From an uncultured Bacteroidales bacterium (GTDB lineage: Bacteria; Bacteroidota; Bacteroidia; Bacteroidales; FEN-979): DNA of 64,000 bases. The DNA lies in the NCBI GenBank assembly GCA_903885595.1, contig CAISJJ010000019.1, positions 8,697-72,696 of the forward strand, written 5' to 3'. Below are positions 8,920-60,900 of the stretch, one piece after another. The translations under genes and the position numbers were made by a program. The notes under the pieces were generated by a model. That model searched no databases and was not told the origin of the DNA. It saw nothing but the letters and a program-made list of their open reading frames with translations. Position 1 is the first letter of the stretch. Every line of letters begins with the position of its first letter.

Positions 8920-9528
8920 ATGAAGAAAAAAATAATCCTGACCATTCTGTCGTCTCTCCTTCTAATAGCGGCGTGTAAAAAAAGCAGTTCTACTGATGAG
9001 AACAGCACGCCCGACAAGATAGCCCTTTCGCAAAACTATGTGCCTTACGGGACCGAAAAATCTTTGAGGATTTGCTATATGCTGAACACATGGGAGTTCA
9101 TGAAGGAAGGACTTAAATTGCAGGCCATTTTGGTTTATGACCTTGAAACCAAAGCCGGGCTCGACACCATCCTGCAGGCCGATCTTCCGAAGATCTGGAA
9201 AGCTCCTCTCCCTTCGAGTCCTGAATATGCCTCCGACAATATCGCCCGTTACTATCTTTCCTTACAGGTGCCGATTCCGCTTAGCCAGTCTGTACCTTCA
9301 AGCCTGATGCATCGGTTCATACTTACGGATACCACAACAGGGGGAACAGTGACCATCGACGGCGGTATCGTGCCGGTTAGAAAAAGTGATATTCCCCGTA
9401 TGATCGCCCCACCCGTAAAGGGAGATTACTATTTGTTTCACAACCAGTCGACGAAAGGTTATCGTTTCCGTTCAGTAAAAGCAAACGGAAACTGCATTTT
9501 AAACATTATGAATGTTTCTCCTGTATGA
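8920..9528 (+). CDS. Lipoprotein of unknown function (possibly a truncated peptidase N-terminal region)
   Basis: It has the lipobox LLLIAAC followed by KKSSS. The tail ...MIAPPVKGDYYLFHNQSTKGYRFRS recalls the region that precedes the catalytic domain in some M23 peptidases (weak, from memory), but no HxxxD or HxH motif follows. Its stop overlaps the next start by 4 nt. Confidence 0.55.
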   Translation: MKKKIILTILSSLLLIAACKKSSSTDENSTPDKIALSQNYVPYGTEKSLRICYMLNTWEFMKEGLKLQAILVYDLETKAGLDTILQADLPKIWKAPLPSSPEYASDNIARYYLSLQVPIPLSQSVPSSLMHRFILTDTTTGGTVTIDGGIVPVRKSDIPRMIAPPVKGDYYLFHNQSTKGYRFRSVKANGNCILNIMNVSPV

Positions 9529-34841: not shown

Positions 34842-36083
34842 ATGAATGACACTTTTTCAGCGAATCTCCTGTTCTCCATGATGGCCAAGCCCATCGGTTC
34901 TGCATGCAACCTGAATTGCACCTATTGTTATTATCTTGAAAAGGAACGACTGTTTCGCCGCGATTTGCAGCAACATACAATGAGCGAAAAACTCCTTGAA
35001 ACCTATATTGCCCAGACCATTTATTCCTCACCCAACCCGGTTGTTCTCTTTGCCTGGCATGGCGGTGAACCGATCATGCGTGGGTTGGATTTCTTTGGGA
35101 AGGTCATTCAGCTGCAAAAAAAACATGGCGCAGGCAGGGTAATTGAGAATTCGTTGCAAACCAACGGAACCATGTTGACTGATGAGTGGTGCTGCTTTTT
35201 CACCGACCATCATTTCCTGATCGGACTTTCGGTCGACGGACCAGCGCATTGTCACGATCGATACCGGGTATACAAGAACGGTCGGGGCAGTTTTGCACAA
35301 TGCATGAAGGGCTTGGAATTACTGGTAAAACACAAGACCGAATTCAATACACTTTCGGTTGTGAATGATTATAACTCAAAATACCCTGATGAAATTTACC
35401 GTTTCCTGAAAAGCATTGGCAGCAGATATATGCAGTTTCTCCCGGTTGTGCAATGGATCGATCCGGCAGCGAAACCGGATGAGCCCAGGATATTGCCGGC
35501 GAATACAAGGAAAAATGCTGAAGTGACCGACTGGACTGTTAACCCGGTTGATTACGGAAATTTCCTGATCCGGATATTTGACGAATGGGTTCGTAATGAT
35601 GTAGGCATCTGTTTTGTAAGTACCTTCGATTGTGTACTTGAAAATTGGATGCGTGTACCTCCCTCAGTATGTGTTTCTGCCGAAACCTGCGGCCATGCGG
35701 GTGTTATGGAATATAACGGGGATGTATTCGCCTGCGATCATTTTGTTTTCCCTGAATATAAACTCGGCAACATCAATGAAAAATCGTTGCTGACCCTGAT
35801 GAATTCTCCATTTCAGCATCAGTTCGGGCGGAACAAGCGTGACATGCTGCCTGCTGTCTGCAGGAAATGCGAATTCCTTGACCTCTGCAACGGGGAATGT
35901 CCAAAAAACCGCATCGTAAATACACCCGAAGGAGAACCTGGATTAAACTACCTATGTCCCGGGTTCAAAATGTTTTATAAACACGCAGAACCCTACTTTG
36001 ATTTCATGGCCACTGAATTGCAGCATAAACGACTACCTGCAAATGTCATGAAATGGGCTTTAAACTGCCAAATGGGAACCTGA
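34842..36083 (+). CDS. Anaerobic sulfatase-maturating enzyme (radical SAM / SPASM)
   Basis: It has KPIGSACNLNCTYCYYLEK (CxxxCxxC) and then WHGGEP...QTNGTLLTDEW...SVDGP. The SPASM motif is CRKCEFLDLCNGECPKNR (C-x2-C-x5-C-x3-C). It appears colinear with the Bacteroides anSME ChuR as far as I remember that sequence. Confidence 0.92.
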   Translation: MNDTFSANLLFSMMAKPIGSACNLNCTYCYYLEKERLFRRDLQQHTMSEKLLETYIAQTIYSSPNPVVLFAWHGGEPIMRGLDFFGKVIQLQKKHGAGRVIENSLQTNGTMLTDEWCCFFTDHHFLIGLSVDGPAHCHDRYRVYKNGRGSFAQCMKGLELLVKHKTEFNTLSVVNDYNSKYPDEIYRFLKSIGSRYMQFLPVVQWIDPAAKPDEPRILPANTRKNAEVTDWTVNPVDYGNFLIRIFDEWVRNDVGICFVSTFDCVLENWMRVPPSVCVSAETCGHAGVMEYNGDVFACDHFVFPEYKLGNINEKSLLTLMNSPFQHQFGRNKRDMLPAVCRKCEFLDLCNGECPKNRIVNTPEGEPGLNYLCPGFKMFYKHAEPYFDFMATELQHKRLPANVMKWALNCQMGT

Positions 36084-42698: not shown

Positions 42699-43835
42699 TC
42701 ATTTTGCTTCAAATTTGTAAATTCTGTATTGCTTAATGCACGTACCTCCTACTTTTTCGAGAATTGATTTCATTCTCAGGTTGTTTTCCATCACGTAACC
42801 GGCCTCTCCGTGATACATTCCCAGTGACATGCAATTTTCCTTTATTTTCTGATACAGGATCAGATCGATGCCCTTGTTCCTGAATTCATCGAGCATGCCC
42901 AGGATCAGAATGCGTGCATTGCTGATCTTTCGTTTGTACCAAATGAATTTAAGAATGCCGAATAATCCCAATTTTCCTGATTTGATGCGGCTGAATACCT
43001 GGTTCAGGTCGGGGAGGGCTATTATAAAACCAATGGGCTGCTGCCCTTTTTCGACGATCAGGATCAGTTTCTCCGGAACAAACTGGCTGAACTGCCGGGC
43101 AGTGCTTCTGAATTCCGGTTCAGTCATTGGCAGGAATCCCCAGTTGTCTTTATTCGCCTGATTGTAGACTCCAAGCAAGGGCACTATTTCCTGGTCGAGC
43201 GTTTTATAGTTAATCGCCCTGATTTTTATATCGGATTCCGCAAGATGATCGCTGATCCGTTTTACCATTCTTAGCACGGAGGGTGACAATAAAACCCGGT
43301 CATCCTGCAAGGTGTAGGAAGATAAATCCATTTCCTTTTCAAACCCGAACCGGAGGAGGAAATCATTGTACCAGGGCTTGTTGTATGGCATCATCACAAC
43401 CGGCGGGGTGTCGAATCCCGAAATCAGCATTCCGCACGATTCATTGGTTGTAAAGTTTTCAGGGCCTCGAAGGGTTGTCAAACCTTCCTCCCTGATCCAG
43501 CTTACTGCCTTGTTGAGCAGGGCTGCAGCCACTTCAAAATCATTCACTGATTCGAAAAAGCCAAAAAAACCACACAGTTCACCGGTATGGCTGATGTGGT
43601 TATTATTCCTTATCAGAGCGATGCGGCCGGCCACCTGGTTTTCTTTACATGCCAGGAAAAAATCGACCTTTGAATGCAGGAAAAATGGATTCTTCTTCCG
43701 GTCGAACAGGGACTGTTGCATGACAAAGGGCTCCTGGATATAACATGGATCATCGCGGTATAAAATATGGGGAAACCGGATGAACCGCCTGAGATCCTTC
43801 ACAGACATTACTTCATGTATTTCAATCATGATCAT
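42699..43835 (-). CDS. ~380-aa GNAT-fold acyltransferase-like protein of an uncharacterised family
   Basis: It has an N-terminal ...LRRFIRFPHILYRDDPCYIQEP...KKNPFFLHSKVDFFLA...GRIALI...GFFGFFES pattern. A C-terminal acetyl-CoA-site-like RILILGMLDEFRNKGIDLILY follows. It resembles a widespread but unstudied Bacteroidota GNAT family (from memory). Its start overlaps the upstream stop by 4 nt. Confidence 0.7.
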   Translation of the reverse strand: MIMIEIHEVMSVKDLRRFIRFPHILYRDDPCYIQEPFVMQQSLFDRKKNPFFLHSKVDFFLACKENQVAGRIALIRNNNHISHTGELCGFFGFFESVNDFEVAAALLNKAVSWIREEGLTTLRGPENFTTNESCGMLISGFDTPPVVMMPYNKPWYNDFLLRFGFEKEMDLSSYTLQDDRVLLSPSVLRMVKRISDHLAESDIKIRAINYKTLDQEIVPLLGVYNQANKDNWGFLPMTEPEFRSTARQFSQFVPEKLILIVEKGQQPIGFIIALPDLNQVFSRIKSGKLGLFGILKFIWYKRKISNARILILGMLDEFRNKGIDLILYQKIKENCMSLGMYHGEAGYVMENNLRMKSILEKVGGTCIKQYRIYKFEAK

Positions 43836-45040
43836 TCAGCTATTTGTTTTTCAAGGGGCCTGCCATGGCGTTTGAATTCCTCCAGGCCACAGGAGGGAAC
43901 AAGCCTGCCTTCGTACAGCATGGCATCGGGACAGCCATCGCATTCATCTCTGATTCCATTTACAAAACCGGGTGGAATGATGTAACAGATCAGTTGAACG
44001 GTTGAACGCCTGAACAGGTTCAGGGGGTTCCGGATGATCTCTTTCAGGAAATTATACACGATAATCCTGAAGTCAGAAAGAAACAGGCTTAATAATACCA
44101 GCTGAATGAAATTCAGGTAACTTCTGCCGTTGCCGAATTTATAGGCATATTTCCCGGCGAACAAATGGTGGAAAACCTGGAACGATTCGACAAATTTCGG
44201 GCCTGTAAAACCAAGTATTTTTTTATTCAGGACGATGTAGGATGACTGCAGCCATTTGATGCGGGCATCTTCCAGCCTGCTTCCCAGGTAAGCTGAATAC
44301 CTTATGCCGGGAATAACAGTCTGCACCTGGTTGCACAGGTCTTCAGCATAGACCCATTTCGAACAATCCAGAATTTCATCTTTTTCAAAAAGAACCTGCC
44401 GGATGGGAATAAAGGTTACAAAATCAACGAGGCTGGCGTGTTCCACCGACCAGTTGATTACGGAACCAATCTCTTTGAGGTTGTCGTGGTTTACTACGCA
44501 CAGGAAGGTCAGGTGTATGCCTCCCACAGCATGAACCATTTCACCATAGCGTTTCCGGAGGTCATTGAGTTTCTCTTCCGTTACCGACCTGTGCCGGCTT
44601 AAAGAGTCGACCCTGATGATGAGGCCCGCCAGCCCCTCTTTTTTAAGCCCCGCAAGTACTTCACTGGTTAACAGCACCCCGTTTGTATGTACGAAGGGAA
44701 CCATATCGTGGTCCCTGATAAACCGGATGATGGTTCCGAGTTCAGGATGCAGGAATGGTTCTCCGCCACTGAGGGAGATGATCTGGCAATTCCGCAGCCG
44801 TTTCATCTCAAGGATGTTTTCCTTCACCTTTTCAATGGGTTGGTGAACGGGGATGTTGTCATCCCGGTCGCACCCCCTGTAACATCCCGGGCATTTGAGG
44901 TTGCAGTCGGTGGTTATCTCGACCCAACCGTTCGGGTTGTCGTTCTTGGTAAACGGCAGGCGGTACAGCGTCGAAATGTCAGGAAGTCCGGTTGCTATAT
45001 TCATCTTAGATTTGGTTAGTCGGATTGTTTTACGGTTCAT
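43832..45040 (-). CDS. Radical SAM enzyme (no B12-type N-terminal domain)
   Basis: The CxxxCxxC motif sits near the N-terminus (ITTDCNLKCPGCYR), followed by SLSGGEPFLHPEL and HTNG. The C-terminal Cys-rich tail reads IRDECDGCPDAMLYEGRLVPSCG. Confidence 0.85.
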   Translation of the reverse strand: MNRKTIRLTKSKMNIATGLPDISTLYRLPFTKNDNPNGWVEITTDCNLKCPGCYRGCDRDDNIPVHQPIEKVKENILEMKRLRNCQIISLSGGEPFLHPELGTIIRFIRDHDMVPFVHTNGVLLTSEVLAGLKKEGLAGLIIRVDSLSRHRSVTEEKLNDLRKRYGEMVHAVGGIHLTFLCVVNHDNLKEIGSVINWSVEHASLVDFVTFIPIRQVLFEKDEILDCSKWVYAEDLCNQVQTVIPGIRYSAYLGSRLEDARIKWLQSSYIVLNKKILGFTGPKFVESFQVFHHLFAGKYAYKFGNGRSYLNFIQLVLLSLFLSDFRIIVYNFLKEIIRNPLNLFRRSTVQLICYIIPPGFVNGIRDECDGCPDAMLYEGRLVPSCGLEEFKRHGRPLEKQIAE

Positions 45041-45085
45041 TATGCTTATTTAAGCTGATCATTTCACAAATGACAATCAATGATG

Positions 45086-45210
45086 TTTTCTTTGTGATTC
45101 TAAGTGTCTACTATGTGAACTCCGTGTAATTTTCTTTCATGGAGAGCCTCGTTGAAATCTTCTTTCACGGAGAACCACGGAGAGATTACACAGAGAGCTA
45201 CAAAGAAAGA
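45086..45210. repeat. Imperfect inverted/direct word repeats (CTCCGTG / CACGG(G)AGAG / CACAGAGAG)
   Basis: ctccgtgtaat (45120-45130) faces attacacagag (45186-45196), with 10 of 11 positions complementary. ttctttcatggagag (45132-45146) and ttctttcacggagaac (45160-45175) are direct repeats. ctttgtga (left) faces tacaaag (right). The repeats lie in the 211-nt gap inside the rSAM operon. Confidence 0.6.
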
Positions 45211-45251
45211 ATTTATAAGTTGTTCCAATTTTAAATTAAAAAACATATTTG

Positions 45252-46574
45252 TCATACAATCAGCGGTGTTTCCCCCTTCTTAACATAAGAACGGTAATGC
45301 AGATTCACGGCGAATGCAAAGATGTAATTCACCGGATGCTTCAGTATCTGCCTGTTCAGCAGCGTACGGCAGACGATTCCGCCCAGGGAGAATATTTTTC
45401 CATTTAGCCAGTGGTACATCAAAGTCAGATTTTCCGGGGTGATTTGTTCAGGGTAATGAACACATTCCGATGCTGTATAATGGTCGAAATTCTCATGAAT
45501 CAGCCGGCCTGCTGCCTTATATTCAAGATAGAGCCGGGTAGCGGGAACGGGCGTTAAAAAGTAGATGCGCAGCAAGGGAATTTTACATTTCCTGATGAAA
45601 TCCCAGGTTGCCTGCAACGACTCCGTGGTATCTCCATCTGTCCCGATGATCATCTCGGCGCTTATCATAATCCCGGCCTTATTGAAAGCAGCCATCAGCT
45701 TTTGATGGTCATCGGTCCTGAGCCACTTCTTATTCAGCTTGTCAAGGCCCTCCTGCGAAATACTTTCAAGGCCAAGGCTGAGGATCTCACACCCCGACCG
45801 GGCCACCAGTTTCAGCAACGATTCATTCCGGGCCAGGTTCATGGTGCACTGGCTCGACCACTTCATTTTCATCGGGAGTATCCTTCTGCACAGTTCCTCC
45901 AGGTATGCAGGGTTGCTCACAATGTTGTCATCAATCATATAAAACTTATGATACCCGAGACTTTTAATCTTTTCAATGTCCCTGATCACCTCGTCAACAG
46001 GTCTTGCCATGTGACGGCCCTTATACAAGCAGGCGATGGAGCAAAAGCTGCATGTGTGGTTGCAACCCCTTCCCGCCTGCACAGGCAGCATGTCGCCGAT
46101 TCGCTTTTCGGCAAGCATTTCATAACGGGGAAGCGGCAAATTGTTAAGGTCACCGACCGGATTGTTGTAAACAGGTTGCAGCCTGCCATGCTTCTCAAAA
46201 TCCGACAGCAGCAACGGGAACGATATTTCCGCATCCCCGATGACAATACTGTCGACAAATTTCAACGCAAGTTCCGGGACCATCGAGGCCATATAGCCTC
46301 CCATGAAAACGATCTTTCCTCTTTTTCTGAATTCCCCGGCCAGGTCGAAGGCCCTGAAAATGGCGTGTCCCATGGCGCCAATGCCAATGATATCCGCATC
46401 CGTGTCGAAGCTGATCTCCTCAATGACTTCAAGTTTGATTTCCACCTCCCAGTTTCCGGGAGCCATGGCAGCCAGGAGCGGAAACACCAATCCCGGCAGG
46501 TAAAGTTTCTTCTGCCTTACAACATTCCCGGTTGAAAGATATTGAGAGGATTGTATCAGCAGGACCTTAGGCAT
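45252..46574 (-). CDS. Class B-like (B12-binding-domain type) radical SAM enzyme
   Basis: A ~170-aa Rossmann-like N-terminal extension (KVLLIQSS...GLVFPLLAAMAP...IIGIGAMG) precedes VQAGRGCNHTCSFCSI (CxxxCxxC). Confidence 0.85.
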   Translation of the reverse strand: MPKVLLIQSSQYLSTGNVVRQKKLYLPGLVFPLLAAMAPGNWEVEIKLEVIEEISFDTDADIIGIGAMGHAIFRAFDLAGEFRKRGKIVFMGGYMASMVPELALKFVDSIVIGDAEISFPLLLSDFEKHGRLQPVYNNPVGDLNNLPLPRYEMLAEKRIGDMLPVQAGRGCNHTCSFCSIACLYKGRHMARPVDEVIRDIEKIKSLGYHKFYMIDDNIVSNPAYLEELCRRILPMKMKWSSQCTMNLARNESLLKLVARSGCEILSLGLESISQEGLDKLNKKWLRTDDHQKLMAAFNKAGIMISAEMIIGTDGDTTESLQATWDFIRKCKIPLLRIYFLTPVPATRLYLEYKAAGRLIHENFDHYTASECVHYPEQITPENLTLMYHWLNGKIFSLGGIVCRTLLNRQILKHPVNYIFAFAVNLHYRSYVKKGETPLIV

Positions 46575-47967
46575 GTTTCGTCACCTCCATGATTTTCTTC
46601 CTGTATTGCTGTTTTACTTTTATCAGACCTTTTGCCAATTTTATCTGCATATGCAGCGGATATTTCAAAAGGCTGAGGAGGTTTTTCGGGTGGAGGATGA
46701 TCCGGAGATAGAGATCCCGGATGTTTTTATAATACGCTTCAAGGCTCATTTTTTCGGGACGGATGGCAACATGGGCGAGGTCCCATTTCACGAAGTCGTT
46801 TCTGCCGATTACAAGATCTGCTTCATTCACCTTCAGACCGGTTCCTTTCAATGGTGTGAGCGGTTGCAGGTTTACGAACTTTATCCCGAGTTCAAGCATG
46901 ATATCGCCCGCTTTTCTGAAATCGCGTGCACTCCAGGAAGGTGAAACAATGACGGCTGCATAACAATCCACCTTGCATGTGTTCAGTACAGCCATGGCCT
47001 GCCTGTTTGTATCACTGCTGGTTTGTTTATTAAAATCAAGCAGCTCAGGATCGTCAAATGATTCGAGCCCGACAATCACCGTTCTCAGTCCAGCCTCTTT
47101 GAATTCCCTTATCAGATCAGGATTGGCCGCGATAAAGTCGGCCCTTCCGTACACCAGGAATTTTTTCATGATCCCCCTTTCATTTAACTGGCGGATAAAT
47201 TCTTTGGTGCGTTTTACACTGACCAGGAAATCATCATCCACAATATAGATCTCCTTTTCCCTGATGGCTGACAATTCATCCATGACGTCATCCAGTGGAC
47301 GGGTAAAGTACCTGTCGCCGGTTATTTTCCTGCAAAAACAGAACTTGCATTGCCAGGGGCAGCCAAACGAGGTTTTTATCAAAGCCACCTTGTTGTGAAA
47401 CACATAAAAGTATTTGTCACGGTACTTTGCGGTAAGTTCCCGGTTGGGCAGCGGGATGTAAAAATCGTAATCCGGAAGCGTGGCTTCGTTTAACACCTCG
47501 TGTTTTCCCAGCGCTCCCGCAGGAAAGGATGATTTCCCATTCAGAAAACTGATAAGCTGCGGGAAAGATCTGGTAGCGTTTCGGACAATGCGGTAATCAA
47601 CCGATTCGTGGTCAATATCCTCAGGGAATTTTTCAAAATGTACACCGCCTGCAACAGTAATGATGTTCTTATTAATCAGTTTTGCAGCTGTACAATATTG
47701 AAGAATAACCGGAATGTGAGTAATATATCCGGTCAGACACAAAACATCCGGGGCGAATGTTCTTATAAAAACATCAACCGGCTCCTCTTCAAGAATCATA
47801 TCCACAATGCTGACCTCGTGCTCTTCCTGAACTAGCGCTGCAAGTATTTCCAACTCCAGGGGTTCCACAATCATCAGATGCTGGAGACCAATGGTATCGG
47901 GGGAGGGTTTAGGCCGGACAAACAGTATTTTCAACGGGTCAAATTTGATTTTCAACTTTAAATGCAT
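46567..47967 (-). CDS. Class B-like (B12-binding-domain type) radical SAM enzyme
   Basis: The N-terminal extension (ILFVRPKP...GLQHLMIVEPLELEILAALV...VLCLTGY) precedes KTSFGCPWQCKFCF (CxxxCxxC). It overlaps the downstream gene by 8 nt. Confidence 0.85.
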   Translation of the reverse strand: MHLKLKIKFDPLKILFVRPKPSPDTIGLQHLMIVEPLELEILAALVQEEHEVSIVDMILEEEPVDVFIRTFAPDVLCLTGYITHIPVILQYCTAAKLINKNIITVAGGVHFEKFPEDIDHESVDYRIVRNATRSFPQLISFLNGKSSFPAGALGKHEVLNEATLPDYDFYIPLPNRELTAKYRDKYFYVFHNKVALIKTSFGCPWQCKFCFCRKITGDRYFTRPLDDVMDELSAIREKEIYIVDDDFLVSVKRTKEFIRQLNERGIMKKFLVYGRADFIAANPDLIREFKEAGLRTVIVGLESFDDPELLDFNKQTSSDTNRQAMAVLNTCKVDCYAAVIVSPSWSARDFRKAGDIMLELGIKFVNLQPLTPLKGTGLKVNEADLVIGRNDFVKWDLAHVAIRPEKMSLEAYYKNIRDLYLRIILHPKNLLSLLKYPLHMQIKLAKGLIKVKQQYRKKIMEVTKHA

Positions 47968-48952
47968 GACATTTTTCAGGTGGTTTCGAATAGGTCAGAA
48001 AACCTTTAAATAACCTGAGAATATAAAGAATCGCGGGGTTCCGGTGATAGGCAAACATCCTTCTTTCACTCACATTCCCGCCAAGACGGATTTTGGCAAT
48101 TTCGGCGGTTTGTCCGAAATCGATAACCCCGTATTTATGCTCAACCGCTTTATTAATAATACCTAACAGGTTATTGTTGTAAGATTGATAAAGGTCCCTG
48201 AGGGCATAGTTCAGGCCGCCGAAAAAGAAAAACAGCACATCCGAATCTTTACAGACCACATGCCAGCACAACATCTTCTTTCCTGCGTTACAGGTGGTAA
48301 GCAGGAAGTTTGACGGAAGGTACCTGAATGCATCCAGGCTGAGGATTTCCAGTTTTGTCGTGGTCTTTTTCATGATTTCAAGGTACAAGGCATGATGCTC
48401 TTCGCTGAATACCGAGCAATCTGTGGTGACAGTCCTGACATCTGCGAATTTTTTCCTGATCCTGTGAATCCTTCTCCGGTAGCTGTGCCGGAGCGTATTT
48501 TCATAACCTGAAACACTCTTACTTTTTAATTTTAAGATTACCGTCGGCAATGTTCTCAAATTTAACACTTTATTCCTTAAGTGATCTTCCATAAAATTTA
48601 CCCCGACAATCAGTCCCGATTCAAGTTTAATAAGTTCTGACAGGAAATATTCAAATTCGCCGGGATCACCGATCATAGGCGGGGCTGCTACAGACACGGG
48701 CAATCCGATAATATGCGCTTTAAACGGACTTGGGATGTTGACAAAGGTGAAAATGTCGATCTTCAAGGTGTACACCACTGTTCCTGCAACCAGGTTATTG
48801 TCATGGTAGAGTTCATAATAACGCTGGGCGCAGGGGTTGTACCGGTGAAGGTGTTCCAGGAATTCTGATTTCTGAAAGTAGAAATCTGCCAGGTTATCCC
48901 ATTGGGCATTGAGGTGTTCAGGACTGCTCAATTTTTTAATCGCTTTCTTCAT
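47939..48952 (-). CDS. FemAB/GNAT-fold (acyl- or aminoacyl-transferase-like) protein
   Basis: I place the start at the ATG at 48952 (MKKAIKKLSS...), because the track start at 49051 is TTG. The N-terminal W..L......F...EFLE.L pattern and the C-terminal ...FFFFGGLNYALRDLYQSYNNNLLGIINKAVEHKYGVIDFGQTAEIAKIRLGG resemble FemAB-like/CelD-like GNAT families (from memory). It overlaps the downstream rSAM gene by 29 nt. Confidence 0.6.
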   Translation of the reverse strand: MKKAIKKLSSPEHLNAQWDNLADFYFQKSEFLEHLHRYNPCAQRYYELYHDNNLVAGTVVYTLKIDIFTFVNIPSPFKAHIIGLPVSVAAPPMIGDPGEFEYFLSELIKLESGLIVGVNFMEDHLRNKVLNLRTLPTVILKLKSKSVSGYENTLRHSYRRRIHRIRKKFADVRTVTTDCSVFSEEHHALYLEIMKKTTTKLEILSLDAFRYLPSNFLLTTCNAGKKMLCWHVVCKDSDVLFFFFGGLNYALRDLYQSYNNNLLGIINKAVEHKYGVIDFGQTAEIAKIRLGGNVSERRMFAYHRNPAILYILRLFKGFLTYSKPPEKCHAFKVENQI

Positions 48953-49302
48953 GTTTTTTGGCAATTGCCTCTCCGGGTCTGTCTCATGCTCATTCGCGTT
49001 AAAAGGTTTTGATTTTCGAAACGAATGTAATACAGGATTAAAAGGAATCAAAATTGATTTTCACGACAATTAAGAACCTTGTTGCAGAAAATCATAAAAA
49101 ATGGTGCCGGAGTTTGAATGTTAGTGAAAAATGTAATTTTAAAAAGCTGAAATGCCCGGCTGAACCCATAAAACAGCCTAAAGGTTTAAATAATCAGTGG
49201 CCCGATACCCTTTCTAATATAGGTTCTGTAATGAAAGTTGATATACAATGCGTAAAAGTTGATCAGTGGGCTGGTGAAAATAGTTCGCACAAACAGGTTT
49301 CT

Positions 49303-50233
49303 TTATAGGATGTTGGTGATTGAATAGGTATCATTGTAAATCCACCAATACATGGCGTCAGTTGTCGCAGGTGTCATTTGTGCAGGTCGATGGACGCAAG
49401 TAAAGCCGTTATACCTGTTAAAATCTTCATGCAGAAGCCTGTTTTCCTGTTTTAATTTCTTAAACAAATATGTTCCGGGAAGCGGTGTAAGCAGGTTGAA
49501 TACCGGAATAGCAATCTTGCTTTTTGCAATAAACCGTGAAGTTTTGCGGATGGTTTCCTCTGTGTCGTGGTCCGTTCCGATAAGAAAGGAGGCGAAGATC
49601 ACGATGCCGGCCTTCCGGATGTTTTTCAGTAATGCCGCTGTATCTGCGGTTTTCACCCATGATTTGTTAAACTCATCCAACCCTTCCTGGTTTATTCCCT
49701 CGATACCGACACTAAGCAGTTTACATCCCGATTTTGCTAATAATTTCAAGATGTTTTTATGCCGGGCAATGTTGATGGTGCATTGCCCGGCCCAGCTCAT
49801 TTTCAAGGGAATGATCTTCTTTAAAAGAGTTTCAAGGTAAGGTATGTTTCCTGCCATGTTATTATCCAGGAGCGTAAAGCGTTTATAACCCAATTGCCTG
49901 ATTATTTTAATGTCGCGGATGACTTCATCGACCGGCCTTACTGCATACTTGCCCCGGTGAATGCTCGAGTTTTCCCCGGGTACGGAATTCTTTTGCAATA
50001 TCCATTGCCCGGAATACGGAATAACCCATGGCGCCGAGTCCTACCAGATCACAATCTTCATCAAAGTCAACCTCATCGATGATCTCAATGATGATCTTTA
50101 CCTGCCAGTGACCAGGAACCATGGCTGCCAGCAACGGCAATGCAAGACCGGGTAACGACATGTGTTTTTCCTTGCACAATGTCCTGCCATCAGATTCGTA
50201 CTGCGACGGTAATATTAAAATTACTTTAGGCAT
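49303..50233 (-). pseudogene. Dead paralogue of the rSAM gene 45252-46574 (internal deletion plus frameshift, Fe-S motif lost)
   Basis: ORF 49925-50233 (MPKVILILPSQYESDGRTLCKEKHMSLPGLALPLLAAMVPGHWQVKIIIEIIDEVDFDEDCDLVGLGAMGYSVFRAMDIAKEFRTRGK) aligns to residues 1 to ~87 of the intact copy. ORF 49303-49998 (...HRGKYAVRPVDEVIRDIKIIRQLGYKRF...) aligns from ~191 onward (KGRHMARPVDEVIRDIEKIKSLGYHKF...). The two pieces are in different frames. The ~100 residues between them, which include GCNHTCSFC, are missing. Confidence 0.7.
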
Positions 50234-50258
50234 CTCCTGTTCGCTAAATATTTTTCAA

Positions 50259-51905
50259 TCATGGCCCGCGATATTCCATACGAATGGTTTCGGGCTGGTC
50301 GCCGGCAGGGAGGATAAAATGCCTTACAGATCCCAGGAAAACATATCCTGAAAGAACAGGGAAAGCAAAAACGGCCACGATCCATCCCAGGATGCACCAA
50401 AATGGCTTCTCAAGAAACATCATTCCCATCAAATGTTTCCATCGTTTCCGGAATCCTGTGCCATAAAACAGCAGTCCGCAGATGCACGAAAGGATATATA
50501 ATGGCGGCAGCATTTTTTTATATCCCTTAGCGCGGTTCCTGTGTTCAGGGCCATCCTCTTTTTCCAGTGATTGAATGCCCTTATACATATTTTCAAGCAT
50601 CCTGAAAGGCCAGGGGCCGCCTTCATCCACCAGTTTCTGGTAGGTGGTGAGGATATAATTCATGGATTCCTCCTGGGTGATATTTTTAAAGCGGAAGGAG
50701 GATTTTTCAAGCCGGGCTTTATCAAAGGAAAAATCAGGATTGATCCGACCCTCCTTTTTCATGCGCTGCCAGAGCGGTGTTCCGGGTACGGCCTGTAAGG
50801 GCATCACCTGGTACAAGGTCGGGTTCAGCTTTATAAACCGGTCAAGCTCCAGTGGAATTGATTCATTGGTGTGATCATCCCAGCCGATGATGATCGATCC
50901 GAGGGTGTGTATACCTGCACCATGAAGTTTGGCGAAAAGCTGCTCAATATCAACCTGACTGCCACCCCGTTTTTTAAGTTTTTCGGTTTCAAGAAGATCG
51001 TTATTAAAAGATTCGACTCCTATGTACAACATTCCGATACCACACCGGATAAGTTCCGAAAGGGTGTACCTGGCCACATTGTGTGCCGAGGAAAAGACCG
51101 TAAGATAAAAGGGGCGGCTTATCAGTTCGGAATCCTTTTCCATGCAATGCATAAATTCAAGGACCGCTTCACGGTTTTCCAGGAAATCTTCATCAAAGAT
51201 CACCCCGGAGGTGGCACGGGGATATTTACCGGCGCCCTGTTTAACACTTTTGTACAGATTTTCACCCGAAAACAATATCTTTTTTTGTTTAAACTGGCTG
51301 GAGGTGGAACAAAAACTGCAATGAAAATTACATCCGAGGGCTGCCATGAAATTCAGATTCAAATGAATGGGGAAGCGGGTCCTGAAAAAACTGACCTCGA
51401 TTGGCAGAAGGTCCTGTGTGAGAGGCTGACTGGTTATGATCCCATACTTTTCCTTCAGATAACTTGACAGAAAGGCTAAACCTTCTCCTGTACAAATATG
51501 ATCAACCGTATTTCTCAGTTGTTCAGAAATTTTATACGATTCACTGAAAACAGCCGTGCCATATCCTCCGATGATAATTTCTGTTCCGGGAGAATGATTT
51601 TTCACCCAGGTTGCCATTTCAAGTATCCGGGAGGCCGTGATCACACTAAAGGTAAATGCTACAACATCGTAGTGATGATGCGAAATTTCCTGTTTGAACA
51701 GTTTAAATGAGGGATTTTCCAAAACCACAGACGATACCGGCAAATTTTGAGCGAGAAAATGCAATGGATGCCAGCTTTGGTTCTGGCGAAGTTGAAAAAT
51801 GCCCTGCCTGAGTGTATTCCTGTAATAAAAAAAATCAATATTATCCTCAAATAAACTGGCTTTCGGATAAGGAATATAAGGCGTGGCAAACAGGACATTC
51901 ACCAT
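50259..51905 (-). CDS. Class B-like radical SAM enzyme with C-terminal transmembrane hairpin
   Basis: The N-terminal extension precedes MAALGCNFHCSFCST (CxxxCxxC). The last ~90 aa contain two hydrophobic helices (MLPPLYILSCICGLLFYGTGF and FWCILGWIVAVFAFPVLSGYVFLG). Confidence 0.85.
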   Translation of the reverse strand: MVNVLFATPYIPYPKASLFEDNIDFFYYRNTLRQGIFQLRQNQSWHPLHFLAQNLPVSSVVLENPSFKLFKQEISHHHYDVVAFTFSVITASRILEMATWVKNHSPGTEIIIGGYGTAVFSESYKISEQLRNTVDHICTGEGLAFLSSYLKEKYGIITSQPLTQDLLPIEVSFFRTRFPIHLNLNFMAALGCNFHCSFCSTSSQFKQKKILFSGENLYKSVKQGAGKYPRATSGVIFDEDFLENREAVLEFMHCMEKDSELISRPFYLTVFSSAHNVARYTLSELIRCGIGMLYIGVESFNNDLLETEKLKKRGGSQVDIEQLFAKLHGAGIHTLGSIIIGWDDHTNESIPLELDRFIKLNPTLYQVMPLQAVPGTPLWQRMKKEGRINPDFSFDKARLEKSSFRFKNITQEESMNYILTTYQKLVDEGGPWPFRMLENMYKGIQSLEKEDGPEHRNRAKGYKKMLPPLYILSCICGLLFYGTGFRKRWKHLMGMMFLEKPFWCILGWIVAVFAFPVLSGYVFLGSVRHFILPAGDQPETIRMEYRGP

Positions 51906-52137: not shown

Positions 52138-52677
52138 ATGACATTCCACCAGATCATCCTTTTTTCCTTTTTAACTGTCGTTGCGGTCATTCTTTTATCG
52201 GGACACCAGGTAAGGATTTACCGGATTAAAAAAGCCAAGAACAGGGCATCTAAACCGCCGGGAGCGAGGAAAGTAAAACTTGAGTTAAAGGGGGATATCT
52301 TCGAACTGGACAAACTGGCCATTATTCTTGAAGATCTTGTGCGTTACCAGGTTCCGGTTAAAACCATTCTTGATCTGAATATTATACTGGAAGAGGTTTA
52401 TACAAGCATTGTCAATCACCAGGAAGAGGACCAGCATGATAAAAAGGTTCTCATCACGCTGATGCTGGAGCCTGGCCAGATCAGTGCCTTTGTAAAGGAC
52501 TCCAATGATGAATTTGATCCTACGGTGATACAGGCGATTGATTTAAATGCTCCTATCGAAGAAATTTCCTTCCAGGGGCTGGGCTTTCATATGGTGAGGC
52601 ACCTGGCCGATCAACTGATTTATCAAAGGCTAGAGGATCAGAACATCCTGACCATCAGGAAAACTTACACGATCTGA
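52138..52677 (+). CDS. Membrane-anchored RsbW/SpoIIAB-like HATPase (anti-sigma-type Ser kinase fold)
   Basis: It has an N-terminal TM helix (IILFSFLTVVAVILLS). Then come LNIILEEVYTSIVNH (N-box-like), VKDSNDEFDP and FQGLGFHMVRHLADQLIYQR, which is the HATPase_c_2 layout. Confidence 0.65.
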   Translation: MTFHQIILFSFLTVVAVILLSGHQVRIYRIKKAKNRASKPPGARKVKLELKGDIFELDKLAIILEDLVRYQVPVKTILDLNIILEEVYTSIVNHQEEDQHDKKVLITLMLEPGQISAFVKDSNDEFDPTVIQAIDLNAPIEEISFQGLGFHMVRHLADQLIYQRLEDQNILTIRKTYTI

Positions 52678-53987
52678 TGAAAAGGCTGAAATTCATAGAG
52701 GCACTGTTACGATGGAAATGGTATCCAGATATTTTGAGAATCCCATTCTTTATAGGAACTATTTACCTGTTGTATGTGTTGTTATTCGGAGATCAGGCTG
52801 AAGGCAGGAATACCGGCCTATCGATGATTTGGGTGCTTCTCTGGTCCATGTTACCCATTGCGTTTCTCATTATGGGTCGTTTTTGGTGCGGGTTATGCCC
52901 TTTCGGTACAGCTGGCGACCTGGTGCAAAAAGCCGTTGGCAATGAAATTCATCCCCCTCTTTTTCTCAAAAAGTGGGGAGTCTGGTTTGCATATACCTTT
53001 TTCATCGTGATCCTGCTCATTGAGACTTTGGTTCATATGGCCAGCTCCACGGCCGCATCCAGTATTTTATTATTGTCCATTTTCACGATGGCCATGATTT
53101 CCGGAGCCTTTTTCAAACGACGGACATGGTGCCGCTACTTATGTCCCCTGGGTGTTGCGGGTGGCGTTTTTTCTAGGCTCAGAATCATAAAGCTAAGTAA
53201 AGACAATGCAATTTGCAATGACTGCAAAGAGTTTGAATGCCTCCAGGGCTCTGAGAAATCAAAAGGCTGCCCCATGGGTCTGTGCATAAAAAAGCATGAT
53301 TTGGATGCGGATTGCATTTCATGCGGAAATTGTCTGAAAAACTGCCCAAATGATTCCCCGCGCATTCAATTGCGTTCTCCTGTTAAGGGCTTCCTGTCGA
53401 ATGTAAAACTGAACCAGGCAGAATCGGCATTCGCAAGCAGTTTTATCGGGTTTTCGATAGCTTTATACCTGGTTAAGGATTATCTGGATAAAGTAAACCG
53501 GGCTGTCGGGTCAGGGAATCCTTTATGGAATGAACTCCTGGTCATCATCGTTTTCACCGGGCTGTCGTTTTCACTCTTTTACATATTCAGTTACATCATC
53601 CGTCCCATAACCAGGCAATCGCAAAAGTATAACTTCAGGTTTTTCGGGTTCTTCCTGATTCCTTACATCTTTTTTGCCTTGGTTAACCTGACTGCCATCC
53701 ATGGGGTATCCCTGAACGGGATGACCCTTTTTTACAATGTAAAAATGCTGCTGGGCCTTCCGCTGCAAGGGCCTCTTTTCCACCACCACCCCCTCATCAG
53801 CGCCCAGGCCAAGCACATCATCCAGGGGTTGGGGATCCTGGCCGGAAACATTATCTCCATTGTTTTTTGCTTACAGGAACTGCAGAAGGTTCTTAACAAC
53901 AGGCAACGGAATAAGATCATAGCTGTATTCAGCGTTTTTCTGGTGGGGGTGACGGGGTTGAGTCTATACCTGTTTATGTTTCTTTAG
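52677..53987 (+). CDS. Polytopic membrane 4Fe-4S protein (NapH/MauN-like polyferredoxin)
   Basis: It has two membrane-edge CxxCP motifs (RFWCGLCPFG and TWCRYLCPLG). It also has ferredoxin-type clusters (CNDCKEFEC...CPMGLC and CISCGNCLKNCP) and further C-terminal TM helices. Its ATG overlaps the preceding TGA by 1 nt (TGATG). Confidence 0.8.
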   Translation: MKRLKFIEALLRWKWYPDILRIPFFIGTIYLLYVLLFGDQAEGRNTGLSMIWVLLWSMLPIAFLIMGRFWCGLCPFGTAGDLVQKAVGNEIHPPLFLKKWGVWFAYTFFIVILLIETLVHMASSTAASSILLLSIFTMAMISGAFFKRRTWCRYLCPLGVAGGVFSRLRIIKLSKDNAICNDCKEFECLQGSEKSKGCPMGLCIKKHDLDADCISCGNCLKNCPNDSPRIQLRSPVKGFLSNVKLNQAESAFASSFIGFSIALYLVKDYLDKVNRAVGSGNPLWNELLVIIVFTGLSFSLFYIFSYIIRPITRQSQKYNFRFFGFFLIPYIFFALVNLTAIHGVSLNGMTLFYNVKMLLGLPLQGPLFHHHPLISAQAKHIIQGLGILAGNIISIVFCLQELQKVLNNRQRNKIIAVFSVFLVGVTGLSLYLFMFL

Positions 53988-57990: not shown

Positions 57991-60900
57991 TTATTGAATG
58001 CTCAATGGCAGGGAAAACCTGAAATCGCTGCCTTTCCCGGGTACACTCTCCACCCAGATTCTACCTCCGTGTTTTTCTACAAACTCTTTGCACAGGGTCA
58101 ACCCAATCCCGGTGCCTTTTTCATTTGAGGTTCCGGGTCTTGAGTAACTGGTGGTAATGTCCCAGAGTTTCGGGATGTCTTCTTCATTGATGCCGATGCC
58201 ATTGTCAGAGACTGTGATAACTGCCATCTCCTGATCAATTTGGCTGAATATTTGTATCTTTCCGCCAGGATTCGTGAATTTAATCGCATTTGACAGCAGG
58301 TTCCTTATTACGGTTTTATACATGTTTACGTCTGCTGTAAGGATAAGGTGCCCGCTTTTTTCCGAACATGTTATCGTGATCTGTTTGCTGTTTGCACTTT
58401 CAATGAGGTTCCCGATAATTTCATTACAGGTTTCATAAAAAAGGATCTTTTCAGGAACGAAAGGCAGTTTCCCGGTTTGCAGATTTGCCCACATCAGGAT
58501 ATCTTCCAGCAGTTTGAAAGTTTGTGAAGAGATCCGGTGAATGATGCTAACCTGTTTTTCAATAATGTCTTTGTCGAATTCATTCAGATTTTCCAGCAGT
58601 AATTCTGAAAATCCGAGCAATGAATTAAACGGACTGCGCAGATCGTGAGCGATAATTGAGAAAAATTTATCCTTTGTTGCATTGATCTCATGTAATTCCT
58701 TGTTTTGTTCCAGGATCCGCATTTCTGCTTGCTTGCGCTCAGTTATATCAATGGTGAATCCGGCAAGATAGGGGCGCTTACCTTCCAGGTGGATTGGGAA
58801 TTTTATGGTGGTGTAGATCCGGTCTCCAAGCGATTCTTCAAATTCCATAGGTTTTCCTCCGGTTAACACCCTCATATCCTCGTCGATAATTTGGTTTGCA
58901 AAGGCAGGAGGGAACAACTCATGCATCGATTTTCCGATCGATTCATTTAACGGTATCCCGTTCACTTCAGCAAAATTAGGACTTAACCTGACAGCTTTTA
59001 AATCGGAATCCTTTACAAAAATATAGATCGGGCTGTTCTCGAGCAATGTGTTGAACAGTTTTTCCCCTTCTTCGGCAATCTCTTTGGCCCGTATCAGCGC
59101 TTCGTTGGTAATGACCAGCTCTTCGTTGATGTCAGCAAGTTCGGTGGTTCGCTCTGCCACCTTCATTTCAAGGTTATTGATCAGCAACGCATTTTCGATG
59201 GAGATCACAGCCTGCGAAACGATGATCTGTAATACTTCAAGCCGCTCTTCAGAAAATGCATGAGGAAGAAGGTTGTTTTCGAGATATAACAATCCGATCA
59301 GGTTGCCCTGTGAAAGCAAGGGCTGGCATAACAATGATCTGACATCATGGCTACTGATATAGGAGTCTGTTTTGAAATTGCTGTCAAAACTGGCATTTCC
59401 AAGTACAATACGCTGCCTGGTCCGGCTCACGAAATGAACGATACCCTGTGAGAGTTTCCCGCTATTGCCGATGGGCTCAGATACCTGTACCCTGACCTCT
59501 TCATTTTTAGCGTTTATCTCGGCTTCAATGAACAAGAGGCCATTTCGTTCTAAAATCAGGAATCCGCGTTCTGCCCCTGCATATTCTATAGCAAGGGTCA
59601 TCAGTTTTTTCAGCAGATCCGGCAACCTGATCTCACCTGAAAGCACCTGCGAGACTTTGATGATAGTACTTTCATCAAAACTGATAGCCTTGAACCTATC
59701 GCTGACAAGCAACCTGGCATATTTTTTTTCAAGATCCTTCAATTTCGCCCTGGCTCCCCAGGCTTTGTAACAGCGGTAGGCTTCGCTGAGATACAGGTGG
59801 GCGAATTTTTCATTTTTCAGCGACAGCCAGAATTTGGCAGCCCTTTCGTTGGCAAAGGCTTCAATATATATGAATTCATTCTCACCCGCCAGTTCAATAG
59901 CGTGGTCATACATTCCAATAGCGCCGGCAATATCTCCTTTCACCCGCGCAAGTTCTGCATCGATCAGCCAAAGATTATGCCCGTGGTTCATCGGTGCATG
60001 CTCTGCCCAGACCTTAAAATCGTTCCTGTTACTATTGATGCGTTTAATAAAATTCGAATATTCCGGATCATTTTCATCTTTTATCAAGGCCAGTAAGGCA
60101 ATGGTCTCGGTGAATTTAAAAAACGGGATGTGATAGGTGGATGTTGCTCCTGGCAGGTTTTCGTTGCCTTTACTGATATATTCCAGCGTATGTTCGTACT
60201 TTTCAAATATCAGACCCAGGAACGATTTAAATGTATAAAAAACAAAAAGGGCGGTCATCCCCCTTGTCTGTAAATCGTCAGCGCTGACCTGTCCTTCATT
60301 GAAGTTTTCGCCGAACAACAGATCCTGTTCATCATCCTTGGATATAAAATTTTCGAAGACCTGATGATAAATTTGCAGCAGAATGTAATGCAGCGAATTC
60401 TCCTGGTGGAGCCCGGTCAGTTTTGACTGGTTGCTATCGAGTTCGCTGCAAAGGAACCCAAGGGATTTGCCGGCAAAGAACGAATAGTAACAATAACCAT
60501 GTATGCAGTCGACGGCATAAGGGATGTCCCCCGATTCCAGCCCGGTTTGATGAGCCTCTTTGAGAAATGGTATTCCCGTGATGACATGCTGTTTCCAGTG
60601 TGCGATCAGATTGTAGAAAATGACCGTAGTTTGTGCCGTGAACTCCCTGTATCCTGTTTTCTTCAATAGTTCGGTGGCAAGTATTCCGAACCGGAATCCC
60701 TTTTCGTAATCATTGGCCACGGCGCACAGAACCAGCCCATACACTGCATACCCCGGGATTGAATGGGGTGCATTCCCGTATTTTACAGATAATTCAACAC
60801 ATGTGGCAGCCAACAATGGAAAATACTGGGGTGCAACGAAAAAGATGCCGTGGAGGAGGCTTGAGATGATTCTCAGGGTCTCGATCTTTTCAGGTTCCTC

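Follow-up and report, generated by a model that had tools for sequence, protein, structure and literature searches.

Several described enzyme systems come close to the gene cassette considered here, each to a different part of it. They include the class B radical S-adenosylmethionine (rSAM) C-methylases HpnR/HpnP, TokK/ThnK and CysS, the aminoacyl-tRNA-dependent peptide synthases Sbb17/Sba18 of streptothricin type, MprF, the di-domain enzymes TamH/PigE, tandem GNATs that depend on coenzyme A (CoA), such as MshD, and an exosortase-A/PEP-CTERM-associated set of unknown function, in which we take TIGR03019 to be a FemAB-related protein and TIGR03099 a LysA-like decarboxylase. The cassette lies on the minus strand at positions 42699-51905 of a 64,000-nucleotide stretch from an uncultured Bacteroidales bacterium (assembly GCA_903885595.1, contig CAISJJ010000019.1; the whole stretch is referred to below as the window) and consists of four intact rSAM genes, one truncated rSAM pseudogene and genes for one Fem-fold and one tandem-GNAT protein. 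It is a real, widely conserved orphan biosynthetic module, which combines known enzyme classes in an undescribed way and does not represent a new enzyme class; its product is probably a methylated, acylated amine compound and possibly a lipid. A first-pass annotation of the sequence had described a multi-step tailoring pathway that maps to none known, and this description holds, as no curated family was matched and a full-text literature search found no description of this gene combination. Two studies that were considered as possible descriptions, one of sinefungin (B12-dependent rSAM enzymes together with peptide aminoacyl-tRNA ligases, PEARLs) and one of tRNA deacylases, concern different systems.

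The cassette resembles tRNA-dependent small-molecule, MprF, TamH/PigE, MshD and multi-methylase class B pathways and is a member of none of them. With the class B C-methylases it shares, in the protein called C below, a B12-binding domain followed by an rSAM domain with the CxxxCxxC motif. DUF4070, which is present in HpnP, is weakly matched by protein A and carried by an accessory protein of related loci ('D8'), and the presence of several rSAM paralogues per cluster may point to multiple C-methylations or to iterative ones of the TokK/ThnK and CysS kind. However, the cassette proteins score far below every equivalog cut-off of that group, hopanoid, carbapenem and cystobactamid genes are absent, and the Fem-like and tandem-GNAT partners are foreign to those pathways. 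Like Sbb17/Sba18 and MprF, the Fem-like protein would have a non-protein amine or alcohol as its acceptor and would work in a small gene set free of adenylating enzymes, although, unlike MprF, it has no transmembrane flippase domain. As in TamH/PigE, two activities are predicted to be joined in one chain in AT937, a protein of some related loci, but AT937 is absent from the window and is not accompanied by pyrrole/prodiginine genes. The tandem GNAT shares its two-domain architecture with MshD, the Clostridium glucosamine N-acetyltransferase and CBG of the clavulanate pathway, and the Acetyltransf_1 motif is recognizable in its C-terminal half; it is ∼50 residues longer and stands apart from any mycothiol or clavulanate genes. 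Finally, a Fem-related protein co-occurs with a diaminopimelate (DAP)-decarboxylase-like enzyme both in some versions of the cassette and in the exosortase-A/PEP-CTERM set; on the other hand, the FemAB PEP-CTERM model is not matched, exosortase, acyl-CoA ligase and acyl carrier protein (ACP) are not present, and that set has no rSAM genes. The features of the cassette are as follows (lengths in amino acids, aa).

50259-51905, minus strand: rSAM-548 (A), 548 aa, CNFHCSFC at residue 192; accessory, class-B-like radical SAM protein
49303-50233 (fragments 49925-50233 and 49303-49998), minus strand: rSAM pseudogene, the frameshifted remnant of an accessory rSAM-440 paralogue
47939-48952, minus strand: Fem-like tandem-GNAT transferase (core), 337 aa counted from ATG; putative N-acyltransferase
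46567-47967, minus strand: rSAM-466 (C), B12-binding radical SAM protein, HpnR-like (core), 466 aa, CPWQCKFC at residue 203
45252-46574, minus strand: rSAM-440 (D), B12-like radical SAM protein (core), 440 aa, CNHTCSFC at residue 171
45041-45251, minus strand: D-E spacer of 211 nt, lineage-specific, containing a non-conserved 51-aa open reading frame (45103-45255)
43832-45040, minus strand: rSAM-402 (E), accessory radical SAM protein, not class B, 402 aa, CNLKCPGC at residue 46
42699-43835, minus strand: tandem-GNAT N-acyltransferase (core), 378 aa

Conservation of a four-gene core

Relatives of the Fem-like protein were found in 139 genomes of a species-representative scan. We examined 80 loci by mapping the window proteins onto them and by de novo clustering of the neighboring open reading frames (ORFs), and synteny was counted in the 54 loci whose flanks were long enough. 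In 50 of these, the Fem-like gene is directly followed by C; a D-like gene lies within 5 kb of the Fem-like gene in 53 and a homologous tandem GNAT within 7 kb in 49, and all three stand alongside it in 45. The main D family is represented in 58 loci, and the gene order is kept in ∼80 loci across several phyla. Orthologues of A could be identified in about 8-10 of 83 loci and those of E in ∼12, always adjoining D. The conserved core thus consists of the Fem-like protein, C, D and the tandem GNAT, and A and E are lineage-specific accessories. The first-pass annotation had treated the seven genes as equal members of one unit, which is not borne out, and had made its proposal depend on co-occurrence of the genes in related genomes, for which the result is strongly positive (all partners in the 45 loci mentioned above). 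It had proposed to look for such co-occurrence in other Bacteroidota, where most loci occur, but the cassette is not specific to that phylum.

About 18 of the 80 loci are labeled as groups other than Bacteroidota, among them Ignavibacteria, Myxococcota, Acidobacteriota (Terriglobia and Aminicenantes), Cloacimonadota, Armatimonadota, Bacillota, Spirochaetota and 'Deltaproteobacteria'. Some of the hosts are in culture, for example Ruminiclostridium hungatei DSM 14427, Flavobacterium enshiense DK69, Saccharicrinis spp. and Parabacteroides sp. FAFU027. By word-indexed search, the Fem-like family as a whole comprises 115 clusters (90% identity), and a search of 1.84 billion representatives at E<=1e-30 gave 211 representative clusters.

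No other conserved genes were found in the flanks of the cassette in the loci compared; in R. hungatei, for example, it directly follows dnaG, rpoD, trmK and nif3. Since the flanking genes are not conserved, the cassette is autonomous and self-contained. At the R. hungatei locus (L076, 17322-19658), the cassette is followed, after ∼2 kb, by genes for a type II thioesterase, a CN-hydrolase and a 4'-phosphopantetheinyl transferase; this trio may be a separate cluster of nonribosomal peptide synthetase/polyketide synthase (NRPS/PKS) type or an extension of the cassette, and is not conserved elsewhere. No riboswitch, other Rfam RNA element or tRNA was found at the window locus, and scans for sigma-70 promoters and terminators gave background levels. 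A Bacteroidota-type TAnnTTTG motif is present 203 nt upstream of rSAM-548, at a frequency that is about that expected by chance.

Enzymes of the cassette and its variants

Every minus-strand ORF of the first-pass annotation was found again, and the four CxxxCxxC motifs have exactly the sequences it had reported. Its coding overlaps of 4 and 8 nt are also correct, whereas the third one, of 29 nt between the Fem-like gene and C, is probably an artefact of ORF extension, because the orthologues of C are 455 aa long and start with MKILFVRP. The equivalent codon in the window is a TTG at 47934, 4 nt past the Fem stop codon, and is likely to be the true start of C.

All four intact rSAM proteins pass the cut-off of the Pfam Radical_SAM model (PF04055), and none of the seven products reached any family-specific cut-off in Pfam or NCBIfam. 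C scores 49.3 bits for Radical_SAM and 55.6 bits for B12-binding (PF02310; cut-off 32.1), and its best NCBIfam match is HpnR (TIGR04367), to which C aligns over its full length with 161 bits against a cut-off of 650; the Flavobacterium copy of C reaches 220 bits against the same cut-off. Many orthologues of C in JGI/IMG have been automatically named 'hopanoid C-3 methylase' or 'YgiQ family'. For D, the Radical_SAM score is 53.9 bits, the B12-binding score is sub-threshold (24 bits) and the best NCBIfam match is the PhpK family (100 bits vs 600). A scores 46.7 bits for Radical_SAM, with HpnJ as its best NCBIfam match (62 bits vs 578). Its N-terminal domain is Rossmann-like, with no Pfam B12 match and with weak NCBIfam similarity at residues 67-150. 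Its C-terminal tail is hydrophobic, and all A orthologues have such a segment around residues 495-520. The class B extension that had been ascribed to these three proteins is therefore supported by a score above the Pfam cut-off for C, reaches a sub-threshold score for D and is weakly suggested for A. E has no extension before its motif; it scores 62 bits for Radical_SAM and 30 bits for Fer4_12 in Pfam, and its best NCBIfam matches, TrsS (64 bits vs 490) and Tes (57 bits vs 450), align with the rSAM core alone (residues 39-214). Its C-terminus is Cys-rich, and a single hydrophobic segment spans residues 309-327. A sequence search of the PDB with the rSAM proteins gave generic matches alone (AprD4, CysS, TsrM and MiaB).

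The 'dead copy' of the first-pass annotation is real. Its two frameshifted fragments align with residues 1-88 (53% identity) and 181-401 (46% identity) of rSAM-440, ∼90 residues that include the CxxxCxxC segment are gone, and it is broken identically in two assemblies of the same population. Its closest intact relative is an extra D-like gene of locus L015 (61% identity), which forms a separate two-member group with that of L020 on clustering, and the closest relatives, L004 and L005, have no gene at this place. We considered a decayed D of the core type and rejected it, since the pseudogene clusters with this rare accessory paralogue group, which is intact in L015 and L020.

The FemAB/GNAT folds that had been proposed for the two remaining proteins were confirmed by AlphaFold2 models and Foldseek. 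The model of the Fem-like protein (predicted local distance difference test, pLDDT, 90.8) has the tandem-GNAT Fem fold, and its top matches are FemX, Sbb17/Sba18, FemA and aminoacyl-phosphatidylglycerol synthases (E ∼1e-11 to 1e-8, TM 0.5-0.6; for FemX, Sbb17/Sba18 and FemA, probability 1.00, E ∼1e-11 to 1e-10 and TM 0.52-0.62), a likeness at the level of fold with ∼10-15% identity. The protein matches neither Pfam FemAB (PF02388) nor the curated Fem models nor NCBIfam; PF13480 is weakly matched by 15 of 18 members of the family and PF04339 by one. On this structural basis it is a putative N-acyltransferase that would depend on aminoacyl-tRNA or on another acyl donor. In a related protein of 454 aa (P0331), the C-terminal half of the Fem-like protein appears to be joined to a B12-binding domain, which could be a genuine fusion or an artefact of the gene model or the assembly. 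The tandem GNAT is a different one (pLDDT 89.4); its top matches are the clavulanate-pathway protein 2wpw, glucosamine N-acetyltransferase 5kf1, MshD and MAB_4324 (E ∼1e-14 to 1e-9, TM 0.55-0.63, identity ∼10-13%), which are CoA-dependent enzymes that acylate small amines. Its C-terminal half matches Pfam Acetyltransf_1 with 27.6 bits, and there is no NCBIfam match. For neither of the two proteins was a relative found by sequence search of the PDB.

Comparison of the related loci revealed three types of cassette. Type a, to which the window belongs together with many Bacteroidota and Ignavibacteria, has the order Fem-C-D-(E)-GNAT; Parabacteroides sp. FAFU027 shows the arrangement of the window, Fem-C-D-E-GNAT. 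In type b (∼39 loci from many phyla), the cassette is preceded by the GNAT and a LysA-like fold-type III pyridoxal phosphate (PLP) decarboxylase, and a third B12-rSAM gene and a class I methyltransferase are often added. This decarboxylase scores 160 bits against the LysA cut-off of 298, its Pfam domains for ornithine/DAP/arginine decarboxylases are above cut-off, and it weakly matches TIGR03099 (87 bits vs 478). The third type, found in Flavobacterium, Gillisia, Saccharicrinis and Phaeodactylibacter, carries AT937, a protein of ∼940 aa present in seven loci, together with a cytochrome P450 (P450), a PEMT/ICMT-type membrane methyltransferase and a CmoA-like methyltransferase. The N-terminal half of AT937 is a class III transaminase, and its C-terminal half is homologous to the N-terminal domain of PigE and to cyanobacterial long-chain acyl-ACP reductase (PDB 6jzu; TIGR04058, 71 bits); the score of AT937 against the PigE model is 307 bits (cut-off 850). 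On account of this homology, an assignment of its NAD domain as glutamyl-tRNA-reductase-like was rejected. TamH has been described to convert a fatty acid to an amine, and the domain combination of AT937 follows the same logic (PMC9594044). In addition, fusion proteins were observed, one of the Fem-like protein with AT937 (P0243, 1282 aa) and one of the tandem GNAT with the Fem-like protein (P0261, 718 aa).

P450 genes are present in some loci, and the PEMT/ICMT-type integral-membrane methyltransferases in six, one of them within an operon of the window type (L030). The latter were always seen paired with the CmoA-like methyltransferase (170 bits vs 193), as in L002 (8082-9438), L001 (7227-8564), L036 and L037, and carboxy-SAM-dependent carboxymethylation may take place in the Flavobacterium and Saccharicrinis versions. 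In Parabacteroides sp. FAFU027 (L086, 4344-7775), genes for a 700-aa MMPL-like protein (a faint match to RND lipid exporters) and a 435-aa B12-rSAM protein diverge from the cassette. The 435-aa type recurs as a second D-like gene in ∼7 other loci. The MMPL-like transporter was rejected as a general partner, being present in L086 and L011 only.

The candidate product and its alternatives

Two unrelated amine-forming enzymes, the LysA-like decarboxylase and AT937, are alternately recruited to the same core, so the substrate that the different versions share should be an amine. Furthermore, no adenylating enzyme, ATP-grasp protein, carrier protein or NRPS/PKS is conserved with the cassette, and both acyltransferases would therefore have to take pre-activated donors, of which aminoacyl-tRNA, acyl-CoA and acyl-ACP were considered. 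Our best reading, put forward tentatively, is that the product is amphiphilic and lipid-like, a C-methylated N-acyl or N-aminoacyl long-chain amine or aminolipid. The acceptor would be a primary amine, made in the AT937 versions from a fatty acyl thioester, by way of a TamH/PigE-like transaminase-reductase that yields a fatty amine, and in type b by the LysA-like decarboxylase; the window version, having no amine-forming enzyme, would have to use a pre-existing cellular amine. The Fem-like enzyme may then form an amide on this amine from a pre-activated donor, for which the fold suggests aminoacyl-tRNA and an acyl thioester is possible, and the tandem GNAT may draw on acyl-CoA to cap a free amino group by acetylation or acylation. 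C and D would add methyl groups, or perform related radical chemistry, at unactivated carbons. The number and type of modifications could be varied by lineage-specific extra rSAM proteins, here rSAM-548 with its membrane tail, rSAM-402 and the dead third D-like copy.

The lean toward a lipid comes from the acyl-ACP-reductase-like module of AT937 and its fusion to the Fem-like protein, from the membrane methyltransferases (one of them in the type a operon of L030) and the P450, from the conserved hydrophobic tail of A, from the full-length alignment of C to the lipid methylase HpnR, its closest characterized relative, and from the gene for an MMPL-like protein that adjoins the cassette in one lineage. 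Thus, the guess of the first-pass annotation that a membrane lipid or lipid-linked molecule is modified has gained indirect support from the AT937/Fem fusion, the PEMT/ICMT methyltransferases, the P450 and the tail of rSAM-548, but not from the commonest partner, a decarboxylase of soluble type. Several other observations also weigh against our reading. Soluble amino acids are the usual substrates of the LysA-like decarboxylase, the accessories that point to lipids are found in a minority of loci, with the MMPL-like gene confined to one lineage, and the window version encodes neither of the two amine-forming enzymes. No membrane segments are predicted in the core proteins. A Fem fold is no proof of tRNA use, all the more as FemAB is unmatched and PF13480 weakly matched, and isoelectric point and net charge do not discriminate for tRNA binding because all cassette proteins are basic. 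The rSAM scores are far below equivalog cut-offs, so that 'methylase' is a designation taken from the class alone, and class B rSAM enzymes also catalyze cyclizations, ring contractions and C-C couplings. A bolder proposal goes further, namely that the four-gene core makes an unrecognized and phylogenetically widespread class of metabolites (C-methylated N-aminoacyl or N-acyl amines, for example aminolipids or alkylamine lipids) via aminoacyl-tRNA, dispensing with NRPS, ATP-grasp and adenylating enzymes, and diversified by swapped amine modules and rSAM paralogues; in this complete form we consider it somewhat unlikely.

The same chemistry could also be applied to a soluble small molecule, to give, for instance, a modified diamine or an amino-acid conjugate that would function as an osmolyte, a low-molecular-weight thiol-like cofactor (by MshD-type logic) or a self-protected N-acetyl antibiotic, as in phosphinothricin. 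This alternative, rather unlikely in our view but to be taken seriously, would explain why the accessory seen most often is the LysA-like PLP decarboxylase (39 loci) and why the core proteins are predicted to be soluble. It also agrees with the best structural matches of the tandem GNAT, which acetylate soluble amines (glucosamine and a mycothiol precursor), with the PhpK family as the best NCBIfam match of D, PhpK working on the N-acetylated substrate, and with the position of the R. hungatei cassette amid housekeeping genes with no lipid genes nearby. However, it does not account for the fusion of the Fem-like protein to a module with an acyl-ACP-reductase-like domain or for the PEMT/ICMT membrane methyltransferases, the P450 and the rSAM-548 membrane tail in variant loci; pepM, a transporter and a resistance gene are not conserved among the loci, and the PhpK score is 100 bits where 600 are required. 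It appears improbable that the cassette acts post-translationally on a peptide or protein whose gene lies elsewhere. Such a system would combine amino-acid addition by the Fem-like protein (the logic of L/F-transferase or PEARLs) with N-acetylation and PoyC/Mmp10-like C-methylation, and it is true that PoyC and Mmp10, which C-methylate peptides and proteins, are class B rSAM enzymes, that weak matches to models of a C-methyltransferase of ribosomally synthesized and post-translationally modified peptides (RiPPs), of ApyD and of the MCR glutamine methyltransferase were obtained, and that enzymes of the Fem and GNAT types can act on peptides. Yet the amine-forming accessories (the fatty-amine module and the decarboxylase) and the fusion of the former to the Fem-like protein do not fit such a substrate, and de novo clustering of all ORFs of at least 40 aa in 83 loci revealed no conserved sense-strand small ORF. 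The 51-aa ORF at 45103-45255, a gene-caller prediction, has no homologue in any locus, including relatives with 85-91% protein identity, and the D-E gap that contains it measures 211 nt in the window vs ∼2-39 nt in the other E-bearing loci and is not a repeat; lacking conservation and lying in a spacer that only this lineage has, this ORF was rejected as a precursor peptide. Neither Pfam nor NCBIfam detected an RRE/PqqD-like domain, a leader peptidase or an exporter among the cassette proteins, and none was found as a conserved neighbor. The first-pass argument against a classical RiPP is thus strengthened, and such a product is unlikely.

We regard it as quite improbable that the target of modification is a polymer of the cell envelope or a precursor of such a polymer (peptidoglycan stem peptide or DAP, lipopolysaccharide, exopolysaccharide), in the manner of FemABX bridges or of the exosortase-A-associated set of FemAB and decarboxylase. 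The Fem fold would suit this possibility, as would the likeness of the decarboxylase to LysA, which is a DAP decarboxylase, and to TIGR03099, but the respective scores (160 and 87 bits) are far under the cut-offs of 298 and 478, glycosyltransferase, Mur, flippase and exosortase genes are not conserved nearby, and the fatty-amine module has no place in it. To our knowledge, interpeptide bridges are not expected in diderm Bacteroidota, to which most hosts belong. Methylation of a hopanoid, polycyclic or isoprenoid lipid, by enzymes of the HpnR, HpnP, HpnJ or Tes type, is suggested by the best curated matches of C (HpnR), A (HpnJ) and E (Tes/TrsS) and by the JGI name of some C orthologues, but the scores are a small fraction of the cut-offs (161/650, 62/578 and 57/450), such pathways have no use for Fem and GNAT proteins, which are invariable partners here, and squalene-hopene cyclase, polyprenyl and other hpn genes were not found in the window or in ∼80 related loci, so that the earlier statement that polyprenyl and hopanoid genes are missing from the window extends to its relatives. 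A benchmarking study reported that most proteins with the HpnR KEGG orthology (KO) term are not true HpnR, and listed HpnR in Pseudomonadota, Desulfobacterota and Actinomycetota with no mention of Bacteroidota (10.1101/2025.07.29.667474). Given the low scores, the lack of shc and hpn genes and this over-annotation of the KO term, the JGI label should be considered unreliable, and hopanoid methylation is highly improbable. Finally, rSAM-402 is weakly viperin-like over the rSAM core (PADLOC pVip, 57 bits; NCBIfam viperin, 51 bits vs 180), which might suggest an anti-phage defense system, or the genes might be unrelated and adjacent by chance. PADLOC gave generic rSAM-core similarity alone (pVip for E; PDC-M51A, ∼24 bits) and no system-level match, rSAM-402 is itself an accessory, and order and content are kept across distant phyla and gene fusions exist. 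The gene set is more than a chance cluster, and this last alternative is effectively refuted by synteny.

If our reading is right, the cassette would represent a new route to amide-linked metabolites or lipids, in which tRNA- or thioester-dependent amide formation is combined with C-methylation by class B rSAM enzymes. The cassette occurs in at least 139 species-representative genomes, which come from anoxic sediments, peat, wastewater and gut-related lineages. If the product should be a lipid with methyl branches, it could be relevant to where the branched lipid biomarkers of anoxic sediments originate. Few class B rSAM enzymes have known substrates, and a conserved pair with defined partners and cultured hosts offers a tractable entry to their enzymology; it should be noted that uncharacterized rSAM clusters are common. 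In addition, the 'hopanoid C-3 methylase' label is misleading and no basis for inferring hopanoid methylation in Bacteroidota, and systematic mis-annotation of this kind could inflate the hopanoid methylation inferred for Bacteroidota metagenomes.

Other genes of the window

Upstream of the cassette and divergent from it, the plus strand encodes an RsbW-like HATPase_c_2 protein of the anti-sigma-factor kinase type (52138-52677) and a 436-aa NapH-like membrane polyferredoxin (52677-53987). The two genes form an unusual pair with a 1-nt coordinate overlap, which is conserved with the cassette in none of the other ∼80 loci. The first-pass annotation had used the polyferredoxin as evidence for membrane chemistry, a use that fails because it adjoins the cassette in this window alone; for the same reason the polyferredoxin, the HATPase_c_2 protein and a BMP lipoprotein downstream were rejected as members of the cassette. 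A fifth intact radical SAM gene (34842-36083, plus strand) is found ∼6.6 kb away, surrounded by genes for outer-membrane proteins and hydrolases; it encodes a 413-aa rSAM/SPASM protein with no relationship to the families of the cassette.

Farther away, the minus strand at 57991-63282 encodes a 1763-aa multidomain sensor, which, from the appearance of its translation as read by eye, has a protein-kinase-like N-terminus, an ATPase/TPR-like middle part and a histidine-kinase-like C-terminus. Two Sortilin/BNR-repeat proteins of ∼895 aa are encoded on the plus strand (6155-8836 and 9525-12215), and one of them ends in a C-terminal sorting domain of the type IX secretion system, which supports the Bacteroidota origin of the window.

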